Positions 12,290 through 64,000 of a DNA stretch of 64,000 nt are shown piece by piece. Every line of letters begins with the position of its first letter. Positions within the stretch are counted from its first letter, which is position 1. This DNA comes from Candidatus Doudnabacteria bacterium. Lineage in GTDB: Bacteria > Patescibacteriota > JAQUNI01. Location: contig JBAZQX010000006.1 of assembly GCA_041644975.1 (NCBI GenBank), positions 9,761-73,760 of the forward strand, read 5' to 3'. The position numbers were made by a program, and so were the translations under genes. The notes beneath the pieces were generated by a model. That model had not been told where the DNA came from. It searched no databases and saw only the letters and a list, made by a program, of their open reading frames with translations.

Positions 12290-13813
12290 ATGCTTGAAAC
12301 TTCCTTTCAATTATTCCAAAAACAACAAAAATATCTGGAGAAGATGCAGAAAGAGCGACCGGATTTGTTTGAAGTGGACAAGTTGTTTAGGGAGGAAGAA
12401 GTCCTCCCGCAAATTGGGATCACTACCCTAGACCCCAAACGACCCGAAGGTTTTCTGCGTCTTTATCCCCAAGATTTTATTGTTGAAGAAATCCAAAAGG
12501 ATGGAAGTTTGAGCCAAATTGAACCGAAAGACAATGTGCCCGAAAAACCTAAAGAAGAAAAATTTACCCTCTATGCCGATCTGGTTAAAGTAGGAATCTC
12601 TACTTTGGAAGTTGTAAGCCGTCTAGCCAAAGCCTTGGAAATAACACCGAATAAAATCGGGTACGCGGGAATCAAAGATGCCCAAGCGCTATCCAGTCAA
12701 AGAATCGCTCTGCCTAAAATTGGATATGAAAAAGTAAACCCCGTTAGAGAACTTCATTCTCTAACGGTTCCCGCTAACGGTGGCATTAAACCACCGTCAG
12801 CGTCTATATCTTCCCCACCACCGACTTCGTCGGTGGCTTTCTCTAACGGGGTAAAGGATTTAAAGTTAGAGGGGTTTTTTTTAAACAATTTTTTCTATGG
12901 TCGGGGGACAGTAGAGGTTGGAAGCCTGCTTGGCAACCGTTTTACCATCTTCGTCCGCACCGAGAAACGTTTTCCGCGCGAAGAATTAAAAAATAAATTA
13001 GCGGCTATAAAAGAAAAGGGGTTCTTAAACTATTACCAAACCCAACGCTTTGGCGGCGCGAGAATGTTAAGCCACATTCTGGGAAAGTTAATCTTGCAAA
13101 AAAAATATGAGGAGACGGTAAAAACATTCCTCACCACGCCCAGCGATTATAACATTAAACTAATCAAAGCCGTGCGCGCTCGAGCCGCGGAAAATTATGG
13201 CAATTGGAAACGAATGCGGGAAATATTAAATCATCTGCCTTACAACTTTCAGAATGAAATAAAAATATTGGAATATTTGGAAAAATATCCCAGCAATTTC
13301 ATTGGCGCCTTAATCGCCCTCCAAGACCAAACCCAACTTTGGGTCTATGCCTACGCGAGCCTCTTATTTAACGAATATTTATCCTGGGCGACTGAAAATA
13401 ATGAAACCATTCCCCGCGATATCCCTTTGCTTTTAAGCCCTGATTATCAAGACCAAAATTTCTACCGCGTTCTCCTTGACCGCGACGGAATTCGTGATTT
13501 GCAAGAAGCCTTGCGGCCTTTTAAATTTATTCCGATCAAAAGACGTTTTAACCCCGCCTTAATTTTCCTTAAAAACATTCTTGCCAAATCTCTGATGAGT
13601 GGCGTTATCATCAGCTTCTCCTTGGATAAGGGCGCCTATGCCACAACATTCTTAATGAATCTCTTTAAACTGCGCCAGGGTTTGCCCATTCCCGCATGGC
13701 TTAATCGCGATCAGATTGACAGTAAAAAGATCCTGGAAATCGGCACTTGTGAACCGGCTTGCGAGAGATTAAAAGAATATATTTTTTCGGTGTTGGATTA
13801 TGAGAAAGAGTAA
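12290..13813 (+). CDS. truD: tRNA pseudouridine(13) synthase TruD carrying an in-frame repeat insertion
   Basis: YPQDFIVEE N-terminal motif, GIKDAQA catalytic Asp region, NYYQTQRFG motif; 507 aa is long for TruD because of the 12736-12852 element. Confidence 0.8.
   Translation: MLETSFQLFQKQQKYLEKMQKERPDLFEVDKLFREEEVLPQIGITTLDPKRPEGFLRLYPQDFIVEEIQKDGSLSQIEPKDNVPEKPKEEKFTLYADLVKVGISTLEVVSRLAKALEITPNKIGYAGIKDAQALSSQRIALPKIGYEKVNPVRELHSLTVPANGGIKPPSASISSPPPTSSVAFSNGVKDLKLEGFFLNNFFYGRGTVEVGSLLGNRFTIFVRTEKRFPREELKNKLAAIKEKGFLNYYQTQRFGGARMLSHILGKLILQKKYEETVKTFLTTPSDYNIKLIKAVRARAAENYGNWKRMREILNHLPYNFQNEIKILEYLEKYPSNFIGALIALQDQTQLWVYAYASLLFNEYLSWATENNETIPRDIPLLLSPDYQDQNFYRVLLDRDGIRDLQEALRPFKFIPIKRRFNPALIFLKNILAKSLMSGVIISFSLDKGAYATTFLMNLFKLRQGLPIPAWLNRDQIDSKKILEIGTCEPACERLKEYIFSVLDYEKE
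12736..12852 (+). mobile_element. family A MITE-like element inside the truD ORF (in frame)
   Basis: aaaccccgttagagaacttcattctctaacgg ... ccaccaccgacttcgtcggtggctttctctaacgggg; near-identical to intergenic copies at 63700-63838 and 57066-57234. Confidence 0.7.
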
Positions 13814-20569: not shown

Positions 20570-20632
20570 AAACCCCGTTAGAGAACCTCGTTCTCTAACC
20601 CCGTTTAAAAATTTATTTCTAACGGGGTAAAC
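20570..20632. mobile_element. family A MITE-like element (short form)
   Basis: aaaccccgttagagaacctcgttctctaaccccgtttaaaaatttatttctaacggggtaaac. Confidence 0.65.
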
Positions 20633-30342: not shown

Positions 30343-30402
30343 TACCCCGTTAGAGAACTTCGTTCTCTAACCCCGTTTAGAAATTTATTTCTAACGGGGT
30401 TT
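30343..30402. mobile_element. family A MITE-like element (short form)
   Basis: ccccgttagagaacttcgttctctaaccccgtttagaaatttatttctaacggggt. Confidence 0.65.
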
Positions 30403-56643: not shown

Positions 56644-56852
56644 AAATAATTTCCAAAAATATAAATTAACCCTTCACTAAAGTTCAGGCCGTTCAGGCTC
56701 TGAAGAGCCTTCAGGCTCGAAGAGATGCCAAATAAATCCGAAACATTAAGAGACTCCGCATCTCCTATTTTTCACAAAGTATTATATTTAAAGTTTCAAA
56801 TTGCTGTTTAAGCCCTCCTTCTCGCCTTTCAGGAACTCAAGGGGTTCCCCAG

Positions 56853-57065: not shown

Positions 57066-57234
57066 AAACCCCATTAAAGAACTTCATTCTTTAACGGTTT
57101 TCGCTGACACCGTTAGATGTTTACTATCTAACGGGGTCAGCATCTATATTTTTCCACCATCGACTTTGTCGACGTGTCCCGTTACAAATTCATTTGTAAC
57201 GGGATGAACTTTCTCTAACGGGGTAAAAAAACCG
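57066..57234. mobile_element. family A MITE-like element (long form)
   Basis: aaaccccattaaagaacttcattctttaacgg ... ccaccatcgactttgtcgacg ... ctttctctaacggggtaaa. Confidence 0.6.
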
Positions 57235-57597: not shown

Positions 57598-57702
57598 ACC
57601 CCGTTAGAAACATGCCCCGCAGCTAGGCTAGCGGTTAATGTAGAAATATAGATAACTCGTGCGGTTGGGTTTCATGCCCCGCGCGAGTTTCTAACGGGGT
57701 TG
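57598..57702. mobile_element. family A-related element (divergent)
   Basis: gaccccgttagaaacatgccccgc ... catgccccgcgcgagtttctaacggggttgac. Confidence 0.5.
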
Positions 57703-57809: not shown

Positions 57810-58919
57810 ATGAAGCAAGAAATTAAAAAAATTCAAAAGGAATATGAAACGATCTTGAGCGCGCTTTCCGAGCCTGCTGCTATTTCTGATCCAGCGAAGC
57901 GAGCTTCCCTTAGTAAAAGAGGCGCTAGGCTTCAAACCATACTCGCGGAGTATGAAAATTACAAAAAAATTCAGAAAGAGATTAGAGAAACTGGAACCTT
58001 GCTTGTTGATCCCGAACTTAAAAAGGAAGCGGAGCAAGAATTGCAAAATTTAAAAAGTAAAGAGACGCAGATCAGGCAGAGTTTGGAGGAAAAATTAAAT
58101 CCCCCAAATCCCAATGACGTCAAAGATGTAATTATGGAAATCCGCGCCGGCGCCGGCGGCGATGAAGCCGGACTTTTCGCCGCCGATCTTTTTCGGATGT
58201 ATTCACGTTATGCTGAACAACGCGGATGGGAGATAAATCTTCTTAATTCCAGCCGCACAGGCATCGGCGGCTTTAAAGAGATTATCTTTGAGGTGAACGG
58301 CAGCGATGTTTTCAGCCACTTAAAATACGAAAGCGGAGTGCATCGCGTCCAACGCATACCGGAAACCGAAAAGTCGGGGCGTATCCACACCTCCACGGCT
58401 TCCGTCGCGGTTCTGCCTCAAGCCGAGGAAGTGGAAATCAAAATCAAACCGGAAAATTTACGCATTGACGTTTACCGTTCTTCCGGACCCGGCGGCCAAA
58501 GCGTAAACACCACCGATTCCGCTGTCCGCATCACCCACCTGCCCACCGGCTTGGTTGTTTCCTGCCAAGATCAAAAATCACAACTTAAAAACAAAGAAAA
58601 AGCGCTTCAGGTTCTCCGCTCTCGCTTGCTCGTTCAAAGGCAAGAAGAAGAAGCAAAAGCGCAAGGCAAGGCAAGACGTGCTCAAATTGGCGGGGCTAAA
58701 CGCGCTGAAAAAATTCGCACCTATAATTTTCCCCAAGACCGCGTCACAGATCACCGGATCAAAAAAAGTTGGCACGGTATAGAAAAAATTTTAAATGGGG
58801 AATTGGATGATATTGTTAAAACGACAAAAAAAAGTATTGAAACTAAGGGCATAAATATAATTCGTCGTTGCGAGGAGGCCGCCCCAAAGCGGCCGACGAA
58901 GCCCGCCCGCCTCGCCTGA
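57810..58919 (+). CDS. prfA: peptide chain release factor 1
   Basis: GGQ motif (SGPGGQSVNTTDSAVRITHLPTG) and RF1-type domains; the last ~18 codons run into a family B element, so the C-terminus is uncertain. Confidence 0.9.
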   Translation: MKQEIKKIQKEYETILSALSEPAAISDPAKRASLSKRGARLQTILAEYENYKKIQKEIRETGTLLVDPELKKEAEQELQNLKSKETQIRQSLEEKLNPPNPNDVKDVIMEIRAGAGGDEAGLFAADLFRMYSRYAEQRGWEINLLNSSRTGIGGFKEIIFEVNGSDVFSHLKYESGVHRVQRIPETEKSGRIHTSTASVAVLPQAEEVEIKIKPENLRIDVYRSSGPGGQSVNTTDSAVRITHLPTGLVVSCQDQKSQLKNKEKALQVLRSRLLVQRQEEEAKAQGKARRAQIGGAKRAEKIRTYNFPQDRVTDHRIKKSWHGIEKILNGELDDIVKTTKKSIETKGINIIRRCEEAAPKRPTKPARLA

Positions 58920-59059: not shown

Positions 59060-60235
59060 ATGACCATCTCCCAAGCCTTATCCCAAGCCATGAAAAAACT
59101 CAAATTGAGCAAAATTCCCTCCGCCCCTTTAGACGCGGAGATTTTATTATCTTCTGTTTTAAGGAAAAAACGAGAATATCTGCTTGCGCACCCAGGGGAC
59201 GCCATAACTCTCAGCCAAAGCCAAAAATACCAAGCCTTAATCTCGCGCCGCGTTAAAGGTGAACCCGCGGCTTATCTCACGCATCACAAAGAATTTTACG
59301 GTCTGGATTTTTATGTCAATAAAAATACTCTCATCCCGCGGCCGGAGTCAGAATTAATCATTGAGGAGGTCAAAAAAATTGCAGCATCACCAATCATTAT
59401 TGACGTAGGCACAGGATCGGGGTGTCTCGCGATTACCTTGGCGTACAGCATACCGCAAGCTGCTGTCTACGCCACTGACCTTTCGCCAAAAGCGCTTTCT
59501 ATCGCCCGAAGAAACGCCCGCTTACATAAGATAAACCCCGTTAGAGAACCTCGTTCTCTAACCCAGTCTAGAAATTTATTTCTAACGGGGCTAAAATCGG
59601 CGGGTTTCTCTAACGGGATAAAAATCAAATTCCTGCGAGGCAATCTCCTTTCGCCCTTGCCGTCTTGCGTTTGGCAGCTGCCAAGCAAAAAAATTATTAT
59701 CGCCAATCTCCCCTATCTTTCAGAAAAATACCGCAAAGATATTCGCGACACGAGCTTAAGATATGAACCGCGAGAAGCTCTTTGGGGCGGCAAAGACGGT
59801 TTAAAATATTACCGGCAATTATTTCAACAAATTTCCAAAATTATACAATCTCGCGCAATAGACCTCACTATTTTAATTGAAATTAATCCGGAACAAACAA
59901 TTAGAATAAAAAAGGTAATTAAACAATATCTTCCCTGCGCGGAAATAAAAATAAAAAAAGACCTCGCGGGTCTTAATCGTATTGCAGTTATTCAAATGGA
60001 CAGGCGAAAGCCTGCTAAAATGAGGTCATGCTGCGAGAGCGCGACACAGGTAAGTGTCAGACTTTCGCCCTTACAGGACCTTCGGCCTGACCTCCAAAAT
60101 AACACACTTTCCGCCTGCGTCCGCAAAAGGCGGACTGCGGCGAGACGAGGTCGTGTGTTACTCCAAAAATTGCTCCCACCCCCTCTTGTCTCCCCCTGTT
60201 TGTCTTCTCTTCAGAGTCTGAACGACCTGAACTAG
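59060..60235 (+). CDS. prmC: release factor glutamine methyltransferase PrmC (HemK) with in-frame repeat insertion and C-terminal read-through
   Basis: PLDAEILLSSVL N-terminal motif, SAM motif IDVGTGSGCLAITLA, NPPY-type ANLPY; 391 aa versus ~280 expected; the last ~80 codons run through GC-rich repeats. Confidence 0.8.
   Translation: MTISQALSQAMKKLKLSKIPSAPLDAEILLSSVLRKKREYLLAHPGDAITLSQSQKYQALISRRVKGEPAAYLTHHKEFYGLDFYVNKNTLIPRPESELIIEEVKKIAASPIIIDVGTGSGCLAITLAYSIPQAAVYATDLSPKALSIARRNARLHKINPVREPRSLTQSRNLFLTGLKSAGFSNGIKIKFLRGNLLSPLPSCVWQLPSKKIIIANLPYLSEKYRKDIRDTSLRYEPREALWGGKDGLKYYRQLFQQISKIIQSRAIDLTILIEINPEQTIRIKKVIKQYLPCAEIKIKKDLAGLNRIAVIQMDRRKPAKMRSCCESATQVSVRLSPLQDLRPDLQNNTLSACVRKRRTAARRGRVLLQKLLPPPLVSPCLSSLQSLNDLN
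59533..59616 (+). mobile_element. family A MITE-like element inside the prmC ORF (in frame)
   Basis: aaaccccgttagagaacctcgttctctaacccagtctagaaatttatttctaacggggctaaaatcggcgggtttctctaacggga. Confidence 0.7.
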
Positions 60236-60245
60236 TTTCAGGATC
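60207..60245. repeat. family J hairpin repeat (cagagtctgaacgacctgaa ... ttcaggatct)
   Basis: Second copy at 61066-61112. Confidence 0.5.
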
Positions 60246-60522
60246 TAACCTTTCTTGCCCTGTAGTCCGCCTTAGGCGGACAGGGCTTGCTTTCCAATAA
60301 TTTTTGTTTTTTATATTTAAAAACCAACCTTTTGTATTCGGCAAGCCGCTTTTCGGCCTTAAAAACCTTTGTCTGCAACAAAACAAAGCTTTTCCCGCTC
60401 CCCTTGCCCTTCTTAAATAAATCTATTTTTTTTCTAATCTCCTTGAGCTCTCCTTCAAAACTGGCAAGCTTTGCTAAAAGCACTGTCCGCTTAATCTTCG
60501 TCTTTTTATTTTTCTCGGGCAT
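60238..60522 (-). CDS. small basic protein (hypothetical)
   Basis: 94 aa, Lys-rich; the C-terminal region overlaps a repeat. Confidence 0.3.
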   Translation of the reverse strand: MPEKNKKTKIKRTVLLAKLASFEGELKEIRKKIDLFKKGKGSGKSFVLLQTKVFKAEKRLAEYKRLVFKYKKQKLLESKPCPPKADYRARKVRS

Positions 60523-61024: not shown

Positions 61025-61198
61025 TCTGTGCTTTAAAAAGGAATCTCGGCTCTGTCATCTCTTCAGAGTCTGAAGACTCTTCGGAGTCTGAACGACCTGA
61101 ATTTATTTCAGGATCTCCTCTTTAAACATGAAGATGCTGAACCAAGTTCAGCAAGACATTTTGAGCAGGGGGAGTAAGTTTTGTAATTCAAGGTATTA

Positions 61199-62332: not shown

Positions 62333-62923
62333 CTATTGTTCAAATCCTCCAGTTACCCAATCAAACTCACTTTGCCAATTACGCCCAGAACAACTCCAGC
62401 CGGGGCTATTCGGATGGGGATTACCGCTTGTCTCTATATCTACTACTCCTAAAACATAAAAGGCTCCTCGGGAAGCATCACAACCATAACTCCCAGCAGG
62501 ATAACGGTAATAGCGATAATTCCCACAATTATAATTATTGGTCGGATCTCTCACCTCTTGGCTTAATAATCCTGCCGTTCTTAAAGGAGAAATAAAATCA
62601 CCATCTCCGGGAGTGTCCCAACCACCACAACCCTGATAGTCTGAACTAGGATATAACCCGTATTGATCATAATACAGCGCCAGGGCAGTTATCAACTGTT
62701 TCATTGCCGCTAATCTTTGGGTATCTCGCGCTTTTTTTCGGGCATTATTCACAGACACAGTCACGATTGTTGCCAAAAGACCGATGATCGCAATTACCAC
62801 CAAAAGCTCAATTAGAGTAAACCCCGTTAAATGCCGCTTCACGGCAATTTTGCCAAAAGCAAAATTATTTAATGGGGTAAAAGCCATTGAGTGAACAGCG
62901 CGTTTTTTATTTTTGCAAAACAT
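62333..62923 (-). CDS. type IV pilin / pseudopilin with prepilin-type N-terminal methylation domain
   Basis: [21 protein letters not shown] class III signal sequence. Confidence 0.7.
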
Positions 62924-63693: not shown

Positions 63694-63699
63694 ATTTGT

Positions 63700-63838
63700 A
63701 AACCCCGTTAGAGAACTTCATTCTCTAACGGTTCTATTAAACCACCGTCAGCCCCGTTAGAAATTTATTTCTAACGGGGTCAGCGCCTATATTTTTCCCA
63801 CCACCACCGACTTTGTCGGTGGCTTTCTCTAACGGGGT
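63700..63838. mobile_element. family A MITE-like element (long form)
   Basis: aaaccccgttagagaacttcattctctaacgg ... ccccgttagaaatttatttctaacgggg ... ccaccaccaccgactttgtcggtggctttctctaacgggg; directly upstream of rplY. Confidence 0.65.
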
Positions 63839-64000
63839 AAAGATATCCCATTAAAAGTTCACCTTTTAAAGGGGGTATAAGCTCCATTAATAATAAAACG
63901 AAATTCCTCTATAACTCAAGCTGCGTATTTTAGCGAGGGAAAATAAAATCCCTTTGGTCTTAATAACTTATTTGGTTATTTTGCTATTCCAATTTCTTCT

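Follow-up and report, generated by a model that had tools for sequence, protein, structure and literature searches.

An RPE-like palindromic element inserted in frame in truD of a Candidatus Doudnabacteria bacterium, with related copies in several phyla

A 64,000-nucleotide stretch of a Candidatus Doudnabacteria bacterium genome (GCA_041644975.1, contig JBAZQX010000006.1, positions 9,761 to 73,760; hereafter the window) carries a 117-nt insertion within the reading frame of truD, by which the gene gains 39 codons and remains open. Our overall explanation, which we hold to be very likely, is that the insertion represents a non-autonomous, hairpin-rich mobile element that the gene has survived, and that this element belongs to a multi-phylum family inserting in an orientation-specific manner. 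An earlier note, made from the letters of the sequence, had described the segment as a copy of an abundant repeat similar to a MITE (a miniature transposable element with inverted repeats) and resembling in its behavior the Rickettsia palindromic elements (RPEs). The observation of an element in truD is confirmed, and the interpretation given to it is supported by the evidence laid out below.

An in-frame insertion in truD

The host open reading frame (ORF; positions 12290 to 13813 on the forward strand, as are the element in it and the family copies described below) is intact over 507 codons and was identified as TruD by the Pfam family PF01142 (E=7e-57; 193.6 bits vs a cutoff of 27). This match is split in two with the break exactly at the insert, residues 187-373 corresponding to profile positions 100-286. 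The NCBIfam model TIGR00094, whose match is likewise split by the insert, gives 149 bits and stays under its cutoff of 172 bits. A database entry with an identical sequence, from an 86.8-kb contig of a Candidatus Doudnabacteria MAG, is likewise annotated as TruD. A structural model of the protein matched PUS7/TruD structures in Foldseek, among them human PUS7 (5kkp, E=6.5e-20), yeast PUS7 and the M. mazei/archaeal and E. coli TruD proteins. In an alignment of 114 sequences, all 28 invariant TruD positions are retained in the window protein, including G127, K129 and D130 as well as Q252, R253 and F254; the catalytic Asp of the GxKD motif (here GIKD) and the (N)xxQRFG motif are both present.

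Between GIKDAQA and NYYQTQRFG, the protein reads VNPVRELHSLTVPANGGIKPPSASISSPPPTSSVAFSNG. The earlier note had placed a 117-bp repeat copy here, translated as about 39 extra residues without a stop or frameshift, and the sequence is as described: the ORF is uninterrupted, the termini CCCCGTTAGAGAAC (12739-12752) and TTCTCTAACGGGG (12839-12851) and the internal hairpin CCACCGACTTCGTCGGTGG (12818-12836) are all present. Of the proposed boundaries, 12736 to 12852, the length of 117 nt holds; the ends are ambiguous by a few bases, and comparison with an empty site places the core at 12739 to 12851. The 39-residue segment occurs in none of the 113 homologues in the alignment, and the linker between two strands that houses it spans 54 residues here vs 15-19 elsewhere. 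Neither a TruD of an unrelated lineage bearing the segment nor an interruption of the ORF, both of which had been named as evidence that would speak against the proposal, was found.

The insertion event itself is documented by the closest homologue, P0002 from Parcubacteria group bacterium LiPW_72, which has 468 residues, exactly 39 fewer than the window protein, and whose gene (locus L001) sits in the same HSP70-GrpE-HrcA-TruD order. The two genes are 94.6% identical at the nucleotide level with a single gap of 117 nt. At the position of this gap, the orthologue has a clean empty site, GAAAAAGTAAAGGATT, in which GTAAAGG contains one TAAA, while the filled site reads GAAAAAGTAAA-CCCC...GGGG-TAAAGGATT. 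The alignment of the filled and the empty site resolves the insertion into a 113-bp core (CCCC...GGGG; 12739-12851; nhmmer family profile E=4e-34) and a duplicated TAAA, one copy of which precedes the core at 12735-12738 (behind G12734) and the other follows it at 12852-12855. As duplications of 2, 3, 4 or 5 nt all fit the target GTAAAGG, TAAA is given here as the simplest reading. With 54% G+C, the core differs from the window (41.5% G+C).

An assembly error that threaded a repeat into truD would be compatible with the origin of the sequence in a metagenome-assembled genome (MAG), with repeats being a classic cause of misassembly and with the fact that the exact filled junction was not found when searched for in a metagenome contig collection. 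A misjoin would, however, not give an exact 4-nt duplication, a precise in-frame gain of 117 nt and collinear flanks of 94.6% identity. The element is, moreover, shorter than a typical read, and its architecture is met again in assemblies and genes independent of this one. We regard this explanation as highly improbable.

The host frame is the only one among the six frames of the inserted DNA that is free of stops. Each terminus allows a single forward frame, which enters as GTA-AAC-CCC-GTT and leaves as TTC-TCT-AAC-GGG-GTA; read-through is therefore possible only if core and duplication together have a length divisible by three. In copies whose length differs from this, none of the six frames is open.

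The core is framed by terminal inverted repeats (ACCCCGTTAGAGAA at 12738-12751 and TTCTCTAACGGGGT at 12839-12852) that pair perfectly over 14 nt (100% complementary). In addition, the element contains three hairpins. Hairpin 1 (12741-12767) has an 11-bp stem, formed by the left terminus and its complement just inside, and a 5-nt loop. Hairpin 2 (12772-12802; CGCTAACGGTGG CATTAAA CCACCGTCAGCG) is supported by covariation across phyla: its pairing is kept although 7 of the 11 pairs have changed on both sides, and none of 500 shuffles reached the observed covariation score; the internal hairpins were specified by hand for this analysis, and RNAalifold on the cross-phylum alignment returned the invariant outer stem only and no covariation. 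Hairpin 3 spans 12818-12836 (CCACCGAC TTC GTCGGTGG). Compared to shuffled controls, the truD copy folds with z = -8.6 as DNA and z = -9.2 as RNA (-54 kcal/mol). A small core without a transposase ORF, terminal inverted repeats, flanking direct repeats and dispersed copies are among the features by which a MITE is recognized, and the element displays them. A search of positions 12600-13000 against Rfam gave no family match at E<=10, and a known ribozyme, intron or riboswitch was ruled out on these grounds.

Pairing of the 14-nt termini in RNA would bring the two TAAA flanks together, and intervening sequences occur in the rRNA genes of Patescibacteria. Both would fit a scenario in which the element is excised from the transcript or the protein, in the manner of an intron or intein, and mature TruD lacks the 39 residues. 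Against this stand the negative Rfam search, which included introns, a length of 113 nt, which lies far below that of group I and group II introns, and the lack of intein motifs and of Cys/Ser/Thr-Asn residues at the junctions. Copies in intergenic DNA are equally common, and a whole-codon length, found in 8/8 copies within genes, would be needless for an element that is removed. Such a removal is thus hardly to be expected.

In-frame copies in other genes

The terminal 13-mer occurs nine times in the window, where 0.06 occurrences are expected from shuffles. A family profile recovered four full-size copies (that in truD and those at 63699-63841, 57066-57227 and 59532-59622) and two short forms. 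By the orientation of their flanks, the copies in the window are distributed 6 vs 2 over the strands, which is too few to judge a replication-strand bias.

One of these copies (59536-59618; 83-bp core with the flanks ATAAA/TAAA) had been missed in the earlier note. It is not intergenic and lies in frame within prmC (ORF 59060-60235, following prfA; PrmC/HemK by TIGR03534, 218 bits vs a cutoff of 199). It adds 29 residues, INPVREPRSLTQSRNLFLTGLKSAGFSNG, which are read in the same frame of the element as the truD insert and are missing from the closest PrmC homologues (84% and 80% identity). The DNA of these homologues (L121 and L122) provides the corresponding empty sites, AAGGTGAAAAT and AAGGTAACAAT. 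The target is again G-T-R-A-A (GTA-AAR), in which a Val codon precedes one for Lys or Thr, and for truD and prmC alike TAAA is found on both sides of the filled site and once in the empty site. The ORF has remained open, and as the copy is shorter than that in truD and its right terminus imperfect, it is probably older.

Outside the window, family loci were compared on genome contigs (L003-L117) and metagenome contigs (L123-L144). Besides TruD and PrmC, more than 12 host proteins contain in-frame copies, their translation being deduced from the intact ORFs. In Fpg/MutM, the alignment to a solved MutM resumes at the very residue where the element ends, and in ProRS the element lies within the linker that replaces the INS domain. 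Further copies reside in IF-2, an NHL-repeat protein, a giant ORF, a GIY-YIG nuclease, a cupin, HicA, prepilins, the C-terminus of S17, a LipA-like radical-SAM enzyme, a PilZ/AMIN protein and a multidomain HAD/PfkB protein. An Fpg/MutM of Uhrbacteria (L006, 5319-6386) carries about 84 extra residues between MutM positions 75 and 100; 43 of these belong to the element, and the others may stem from a second insertion.

The most common neighbors of the element are genes of type IV pili and the type II secretion system (T2SS), which is explained by the target being part of the prepilin motif and by the cleavage site being regenerated. The codons GGN-TTT-ACN of this motif contain TTTAC, the reverse complement of the GTAAA target, and after insertion the element end ...CTAACGGGG|TTTAC restores ...LTG|FT. 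Of the prepilin-like motifs in the loci (G-F-T-(L/I)-x-E; 35 in total), 16 directly follow an element end (...SLTG from the terminus). The loci with this arrangement are L122, L008, L023, L040, L049, L080, L092, L100, L106, L112, L124 and L134, and P0277 (MKNKG-FTPLEK...) is an example of a regenerated site. Within the window, a variant copy (62822-62877; termini CCCCGTTAAAT/ATTTAATGGGG, 56-bp core, flanks GTAAA/TAAA) is translated on the reverse strand as a leader extension, FTPLNN...HLTG, right before the G|FTLIEL (FTLIELLVV) prepilin motif of ORF 62333-62923 (Pfam N_methyl); the relative L122 shows the same arrangement. As the G|F site is regenerated, only the leader that is removed by the prepilin peptidase lengthens, and we infer that the downstream G|F site is the one that is cleaved.

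In a first sample, all copies inside long ORFs had whole-codon length (8/8), while non-genic copies fell into the three length classes as 17/15/20. In a second sample, which was anchored on the hairpin, 14 of 18 copies were of whole-codon length with a modal core of 113 bp, so that this length is a property of the dominant form and not a survivorship effect alone. The frames of 16 distinct non-genic whole-codon copies were open in 7 cases in forward direction (3.7 expected with the interior shuffled), where the element peptide reads NPVRE...FSNG, and in 11 cases in reverse direction (3.1 expected), where it reads FTPLEK...SLTGF. Given the relatedness of these copies, the excess can be no more than suggestive.

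The open frames even of non-genic copies and the conservation of the peptide (VNPVRE..GGIKPPSA..SVAFSNG) would also fit co-option, in which the Ser/Pro-rich loop gave TruD a new property, such as binding of a partner or localization, and was kept by selection. The conservation of the peptide is, however, a trivial result of DNA conservation in a young repeat, and dependence among the copies overstates the excess of open frames (11/16 in reverse, 7/16 in forward direction). In addition, the same peptide occurs in functionally unrelated proteins, the insert is predicted to be disordered, and every other TruD does without it. Co-option is accordingly very improbable in our estimate.

A profile of the element peptide yielded 68 hits in a word-indexed set of 5.8 billion proteins, almost all of them short hypothetical ORFs; since no TruD was returned although the query held its exact peptide, this search under-reports long hosts and is not a census. 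An exhaustive scan with a 41-residue peptide gave 9 hits, a low number owing to the short query and to the clustering of the library at 50% identity. The dozens of short 'hypothetical proteins' of 41-146 residues among the sequences P0241-P0308, taken from public annotation, are the translated repeat and represent an annotation artefact.

The remaining family copies of the window are intergenic, in agreement with the earlier note, which had listed them at about 63700, 57066, 20570 and 30343. Two are full-size: one with a nested 28-bp hairpin (63703-63837; profile E=4e-24) and one with nested hairpins and degenerate termini (57069-57223; profile E=1e-20). The other two, recovered by the profile search, are short two-hairpin forms (20573-20627 and 30345-30399, the latter with the flanks TTTA/TTTAC). 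The nested single-hairpin units of about 28 bp (CCCCGTTAGAAATTTATTTCTAACGGGG; 63752-63779 and 57103-57137, respectively) are flanked by the direct repeat GTCAG/TCAG. Free-standing hairpins of 31-33 bp with the same termini and TAAA flanks are found in other genomes (L017, L020, L028, L085 and L109), and the hairpin unit may itself be a mobile module.

Further repeats lie in the vicinity of prmC. Just upstream of prfA (57810-58919), a subfamily copy at 57599-57699 has termini of the family type (CCCCGTTAGAAAC...GTTTCTAACGGGG) and the flanks TTGA/TTGAC, but a differing, G+C-rich interior (ATGCCCCGC), and resembles copies in MAGs of Uhrbacteria and Kaiserbacteria (L038, 4920-5016; L044, 1497-1587). 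The window PrmC is also extended at its C-terminus by about 85 residues (59975-60235) that are present in no homologue: its ORF has lost the usual stop and continues into hairpin-rich DNA. The last part of the extension (60201-60246) belongs to another repeat family with two more members in the window (61053-61116 and 56681-56707). Among the homologues, P0152 carries an unrelated insert, KQINPAPLGQSYNKNNVNDNKKLPQRCG, at the same site as the window protein, and P0127 a 41-residue Ala/Pro/Arg-rich segment elsewhere. The lineage-specific inserts in PrmC proteins of Patescibacteria (P0152, P0127, P0122) hint at translation of further repeat families.

Orientation of insertion and the fate of TruD

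To define the insertion rules, orientable copies were compiled from two sources, 20 by the position of hairpin 1 and 18 retrieved independently via the core of hairpin 2. In all of them (38/38), the canonical left end is preceded by a (G)TNAA-type flank and never by its reverse complement. Identical 4-nt flanks were present in 18/20 copies (TAAA, sometimes TGAA, with TCAA and TCAG in others), and the base before the left flank was G in 16/20. A symmetric two-strand transposase should give both orientations; the single orientation thus points to a strand- or site-specific mechanism, and we infer that such an enzyme rather than a classical DDE transposase is responsible. Candidates for the mover are a single-strand transposase of the HUH/Y1 class (IS200/IS605-RAYT-TIRYT type) and a recombinase whose substrate would be a circular intermediate, with TAAA common to its joined ends and the target.

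The ORFs between terminus pairs spaced 0.4-4 kb apart were ordinary genes (S3, L5, DprA, an ABC ATPase and LigT), and no parent insertion sequence (IS) was among them. An IS200 TnpA probe, weak for distant RAYTs, gave no match by phmmer/jackhmmer in the window and 144 loci. All-against-all clustering of the 3382 ORFs in 1.09 Mb of element-bearing loci retrieved type IV pilus/T2SS genes as the only recurrent group and no recurrent transposase.

We propose the following history for truD, of which the insertion, its preserved frame and its position in a loop are shown. A non-autonomous element with a 113-bp core, perfect 14-nt inverted repeats and no coding capacity of its own inserted at GTAAA, which was read as GTA-AAG (Val-Lys), and left TAAA on both sides, so that exactly 117 nt or 39 codons were added. 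The gene would have survived for a combination of reasons: the added length amounts to whole codons; the frame that enters at GTA-AAC-CCC-GTT (V-N-P-V-R-E...) and leaves at TTC-TCT-AAC-GGG-GTA (F-S-N-G-V) is free of stops; and the site lies downstream of the catalytic Asp (GIKD), in a linker that joins two beta-strands and is short and variable in length. Taken together, these would allow the 39 residues to be accommodated as an extra loop in a functional TruD.

The structural model agrees with this placement. AlphaFold2, run on the 114-sequence alignment, gave a confident model (predicted local distance difference test (pLDDT) 92.1; predicted template modelling score 0.87), in which the insert, with the one low-confidence segment of the model (residues 152-184), is located in the loop between strands 134-142 and 196-204, as the earlier note had anticipated for a surface loop. 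The linker that holds it varies in length among solved TruD/PUS7 homologues according to the alignments. The insert peptide is rich in Ser and Pro (8 S and 7 P in 39 residues), and the 39 residues are predicted to form an extra loop that is probably disordered and exposed on the surface.

A recent insertion could, on the other hand, have inactivated or crippled TruD, with the ORF being open by chance of length and frame and its decay not yet visible. TruD is dispensable in many bacteria, and the perfect termini of the truD copy and its identity of 93-94% to other copies suggest that it is young. Yet all 28 invariant positions are kept, including the GIKD Asp and the QRFG motif. When polarized with two outgroups, derived amino-acid changes are not in excess in the window lineage (8 vs 9 in the orthologue in L001), dN/dS relative to the empty-site orthologue is 0.18, and the TruD lineage shows no sign of decay. 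The insert, furthermore, occupies a length-variable linker and not a core element, and the older, degenerate prmC copy as well as the open copies in Fpg, ProRS, IF-2 and the LipA-like enzyme elsewhere indicate that such insertions persist. Inactivation is therefore unlikely, and we favor an insertion after which TruD would stay active, with a loop that would be neutral rather than functional.

Several points weigh against our overall explanation, some of which would also suit a loss of TruD function. The filled allele was seen in a single MAG contig, and the strong RNA structure within the coding region (-54 kcal/mol) could impede translation. The dN/dS of 0.18 between the window truD and its empty-site orthologue spans the whole branch; it is not assignable to the time after the insertion and gives no proof of purifying selection since then. 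Similarly, the sole segment of the model below 50 pLDDT, residues 152-184, is one on which the model holds no information, which is not proof that the insert is exposed or harmless. With respect to the mover, the perfect terminal inverted repeats are unlike those of classical IS200/IS605 elements, the two flanks change in step (TGAA/TGAA, TCAA/TCAA), which is how a true target-site duplication would behave, and no transposase or recombinase partner was identified in the window or the 1.09 Mb of element-bearing loci.

Spread across phyla and relation to known repeats

In a scan of one genome per species (596 Gb) with the 14-nt terminus, the many single hits are expected by chance; the inverted pairs at close spacing that it also revealed, about 60 in number, are not. 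Based on the phylum labels of the MAG records, the pairs occurred most often in Omnitrophota, but also in Uhr-, Kaiser-, Moran-, Nomura- and Saccharibacteria and other Patescibacteria, as well as in Pirellulales/Planctomycetia, Deltaproteobacteria, Nitrospirae and Thermodesulfovibrionia; WOR-3 is added from protein names. One inverted pair is located in the complete genome of Velamenicoccus archaeovorus. The full-size copies of Omnitrophota and of three contigs of one Deltaproteobacteria MAG share the same three-hairpin layout. Identity to the truD copy was 85-87% in Omnitrophota, 77-85% in the Deltaproteobacteria MAG and 93-94% in unbinned metagenome contigs. Gene exchange between Omnitrophota and Patescibacteria has been reported in groundwater (PMC12455944). 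Searches of the literature found the terminal sequence in unrelated primers only and nothing relevant on MITEs in the candidate phyla radiation (CPR), Patescibacteria or Omnitrophota.

The closest counterparts in behavior are RPE-1 to RPE-10 of Rickettsia (Ogata et al. 2000, 2002; summarized in PMC10969869 and PMC3733652). Like these, the element is palindromic, about 100-150 bp long and inserted in frame in unrelated and often essential genes, where it encodes a conserved peptide compatible with the fold of the host, and no transposase is identified for it. Unlike the RPEs, the family occurs in Patescibacteria, Omnitrophota and others, but not Rickettsia, is shared across phyla at 77-94% identity, has an orientation-specific (G)TNAA flank and is mostly intergenic. 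The likeness is thus a functional analogy, drawn by description and not by sequence; the label 'RPE-style' given in the earlier note is apt for the behavior and does not place the element within the Rickettsia families. Its further statement that good documentation exists only for Rickettsia RPEs and few other examples is in line with the literature (PMC10969869, PMC3733652, PMC5896051).

Similarities also exist to bacterial MITEs such as Correia/NEMIS, ERIC, RUP and Coxiella QMITE1/2 (PMC10969869, PMC5896051, PMC3184786), which are small, present in many copies and devoid of a transposase gene, have terminal inverted repeats, short direct repeats at their ends and strong secondary structure, and occasionally form in-frame or C-terminal fusions with host ORFs. 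MITEs, however, usually derive by deletion from an identifiable IS that has the same termini; no such IS was found for this family in the loci examined, and DDE-type MITEs insert in either orientation, in contrast to the one orientation relative to an asymmetric target seen in 38/38 copies here.

With repetitive extragenic palindromic (REP) sequences and REPINs, CGTC-type REPs and TIRYT-associated repeats (PMC3733652), the family has in common that hairpin units occur singly, paired or nested, and some of them in genes. CGTC-type REPs, which include RPE-4 and RPE-6 (PMC3733652), have no dedicated transposase either. The stem of hairpin 2 (GACGGTGG/CCACCGTC) begins with GACG and ends with CGTC. 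The right junction GGGG+T[ACG]A[AG] (GGGG+TNAR) partly resembles the GGGGWSAS of TIRYT-flanking repeats (PMC3733652). The strand-specific behavior is that expected of HUH enzymes. Unlike REPs, the family has a terminal hairpin (CCCCGTTAGAGAA) without a GTAG or CGTC tag and, at about 113 bp, is a composite bounded by 14-nt inverted repeats rather than a unit of 20-40 bp; sharing across phyla is atypical of REPs as well. No RAYT/TIRYT gene was detected near any copy in the window and 144 loci by the weak TnpA probe.

A further resemblance is to IS200/IS605 elements and their palindrome-associated derivatives (PATEs), which likewise insert in a single orientation directly 3' of a short A/T-rich tetra- or pentanucleotide and have subterminal hairpins. 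The insertion targets of IS200/IS605 elements are, for example, TTAC for IS608 and TTGAT for ISDra2. IS200/IS605 elements, however, have no terminal inverted repeats and cause no target duplication, whereas the family has perfect 14-nt inverted termini and co-varying 4-nt flanks; nor was a Y1 transposase detected with the same weak probe in the same loci. Collectively, these comparisons lead us to regard the repeats as a new RPE-like family within an established type of element rather than as a novel system.

Going further, it is possible, although we put this forward tentatively and would not count it as probable, that this is a cross-phylum, 'protein-compatible' palindromic family, whose master copy is shaped for survival in genes, which is moved by an orientation-specific enzyme and exchanged horizontally. 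Shaping is argued from the modal length of 39 codons, the one stop-free frame per orientation and the ends FTPLE.../...LTG|F, which regenerate the prepilin G|FT(L/I)xE site. If true, the family would reflect exchange among co-occurring ultra-small bacteria (Patescibacteria, Omnitrophota) and their neighbors, and it would represent a general RPE-like route for the evolution of protein loops and leader peptides outside Rickettsia. A recent review terms the same phenomenon elsewhere only 'conceivable' (PMC10969869).

Here, an uncultivated Patescibacteria genome provides a clean pair of a filled and an empty site, and two cases, both in translation-related enzymes, within 64 kb. A dozen further protein families in other phyla carry the element in open frames. 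What sets the family apart from a routine MITE is that it has inserted in frame in essential genes of a streamlined genome, that it is spread across phyla and that its target is orientation-specific. For annotation, the findings serve as a warning that conserved proteins of outlying length, long prepilin leaders and many short 'hypothetical proteins' of these phyla are in part this repeat. Its target and ends are defined and natural insertion alleles are numerous, which makes the family a tractable system, in which one may ask how small genomes tolerate such insertions, what moves an element that has inverted termini and yet inserts in one orientation, and whether it can serve as a marker of gene flow between Patescibacteria, Omnitrophota and neighboring bacteria.

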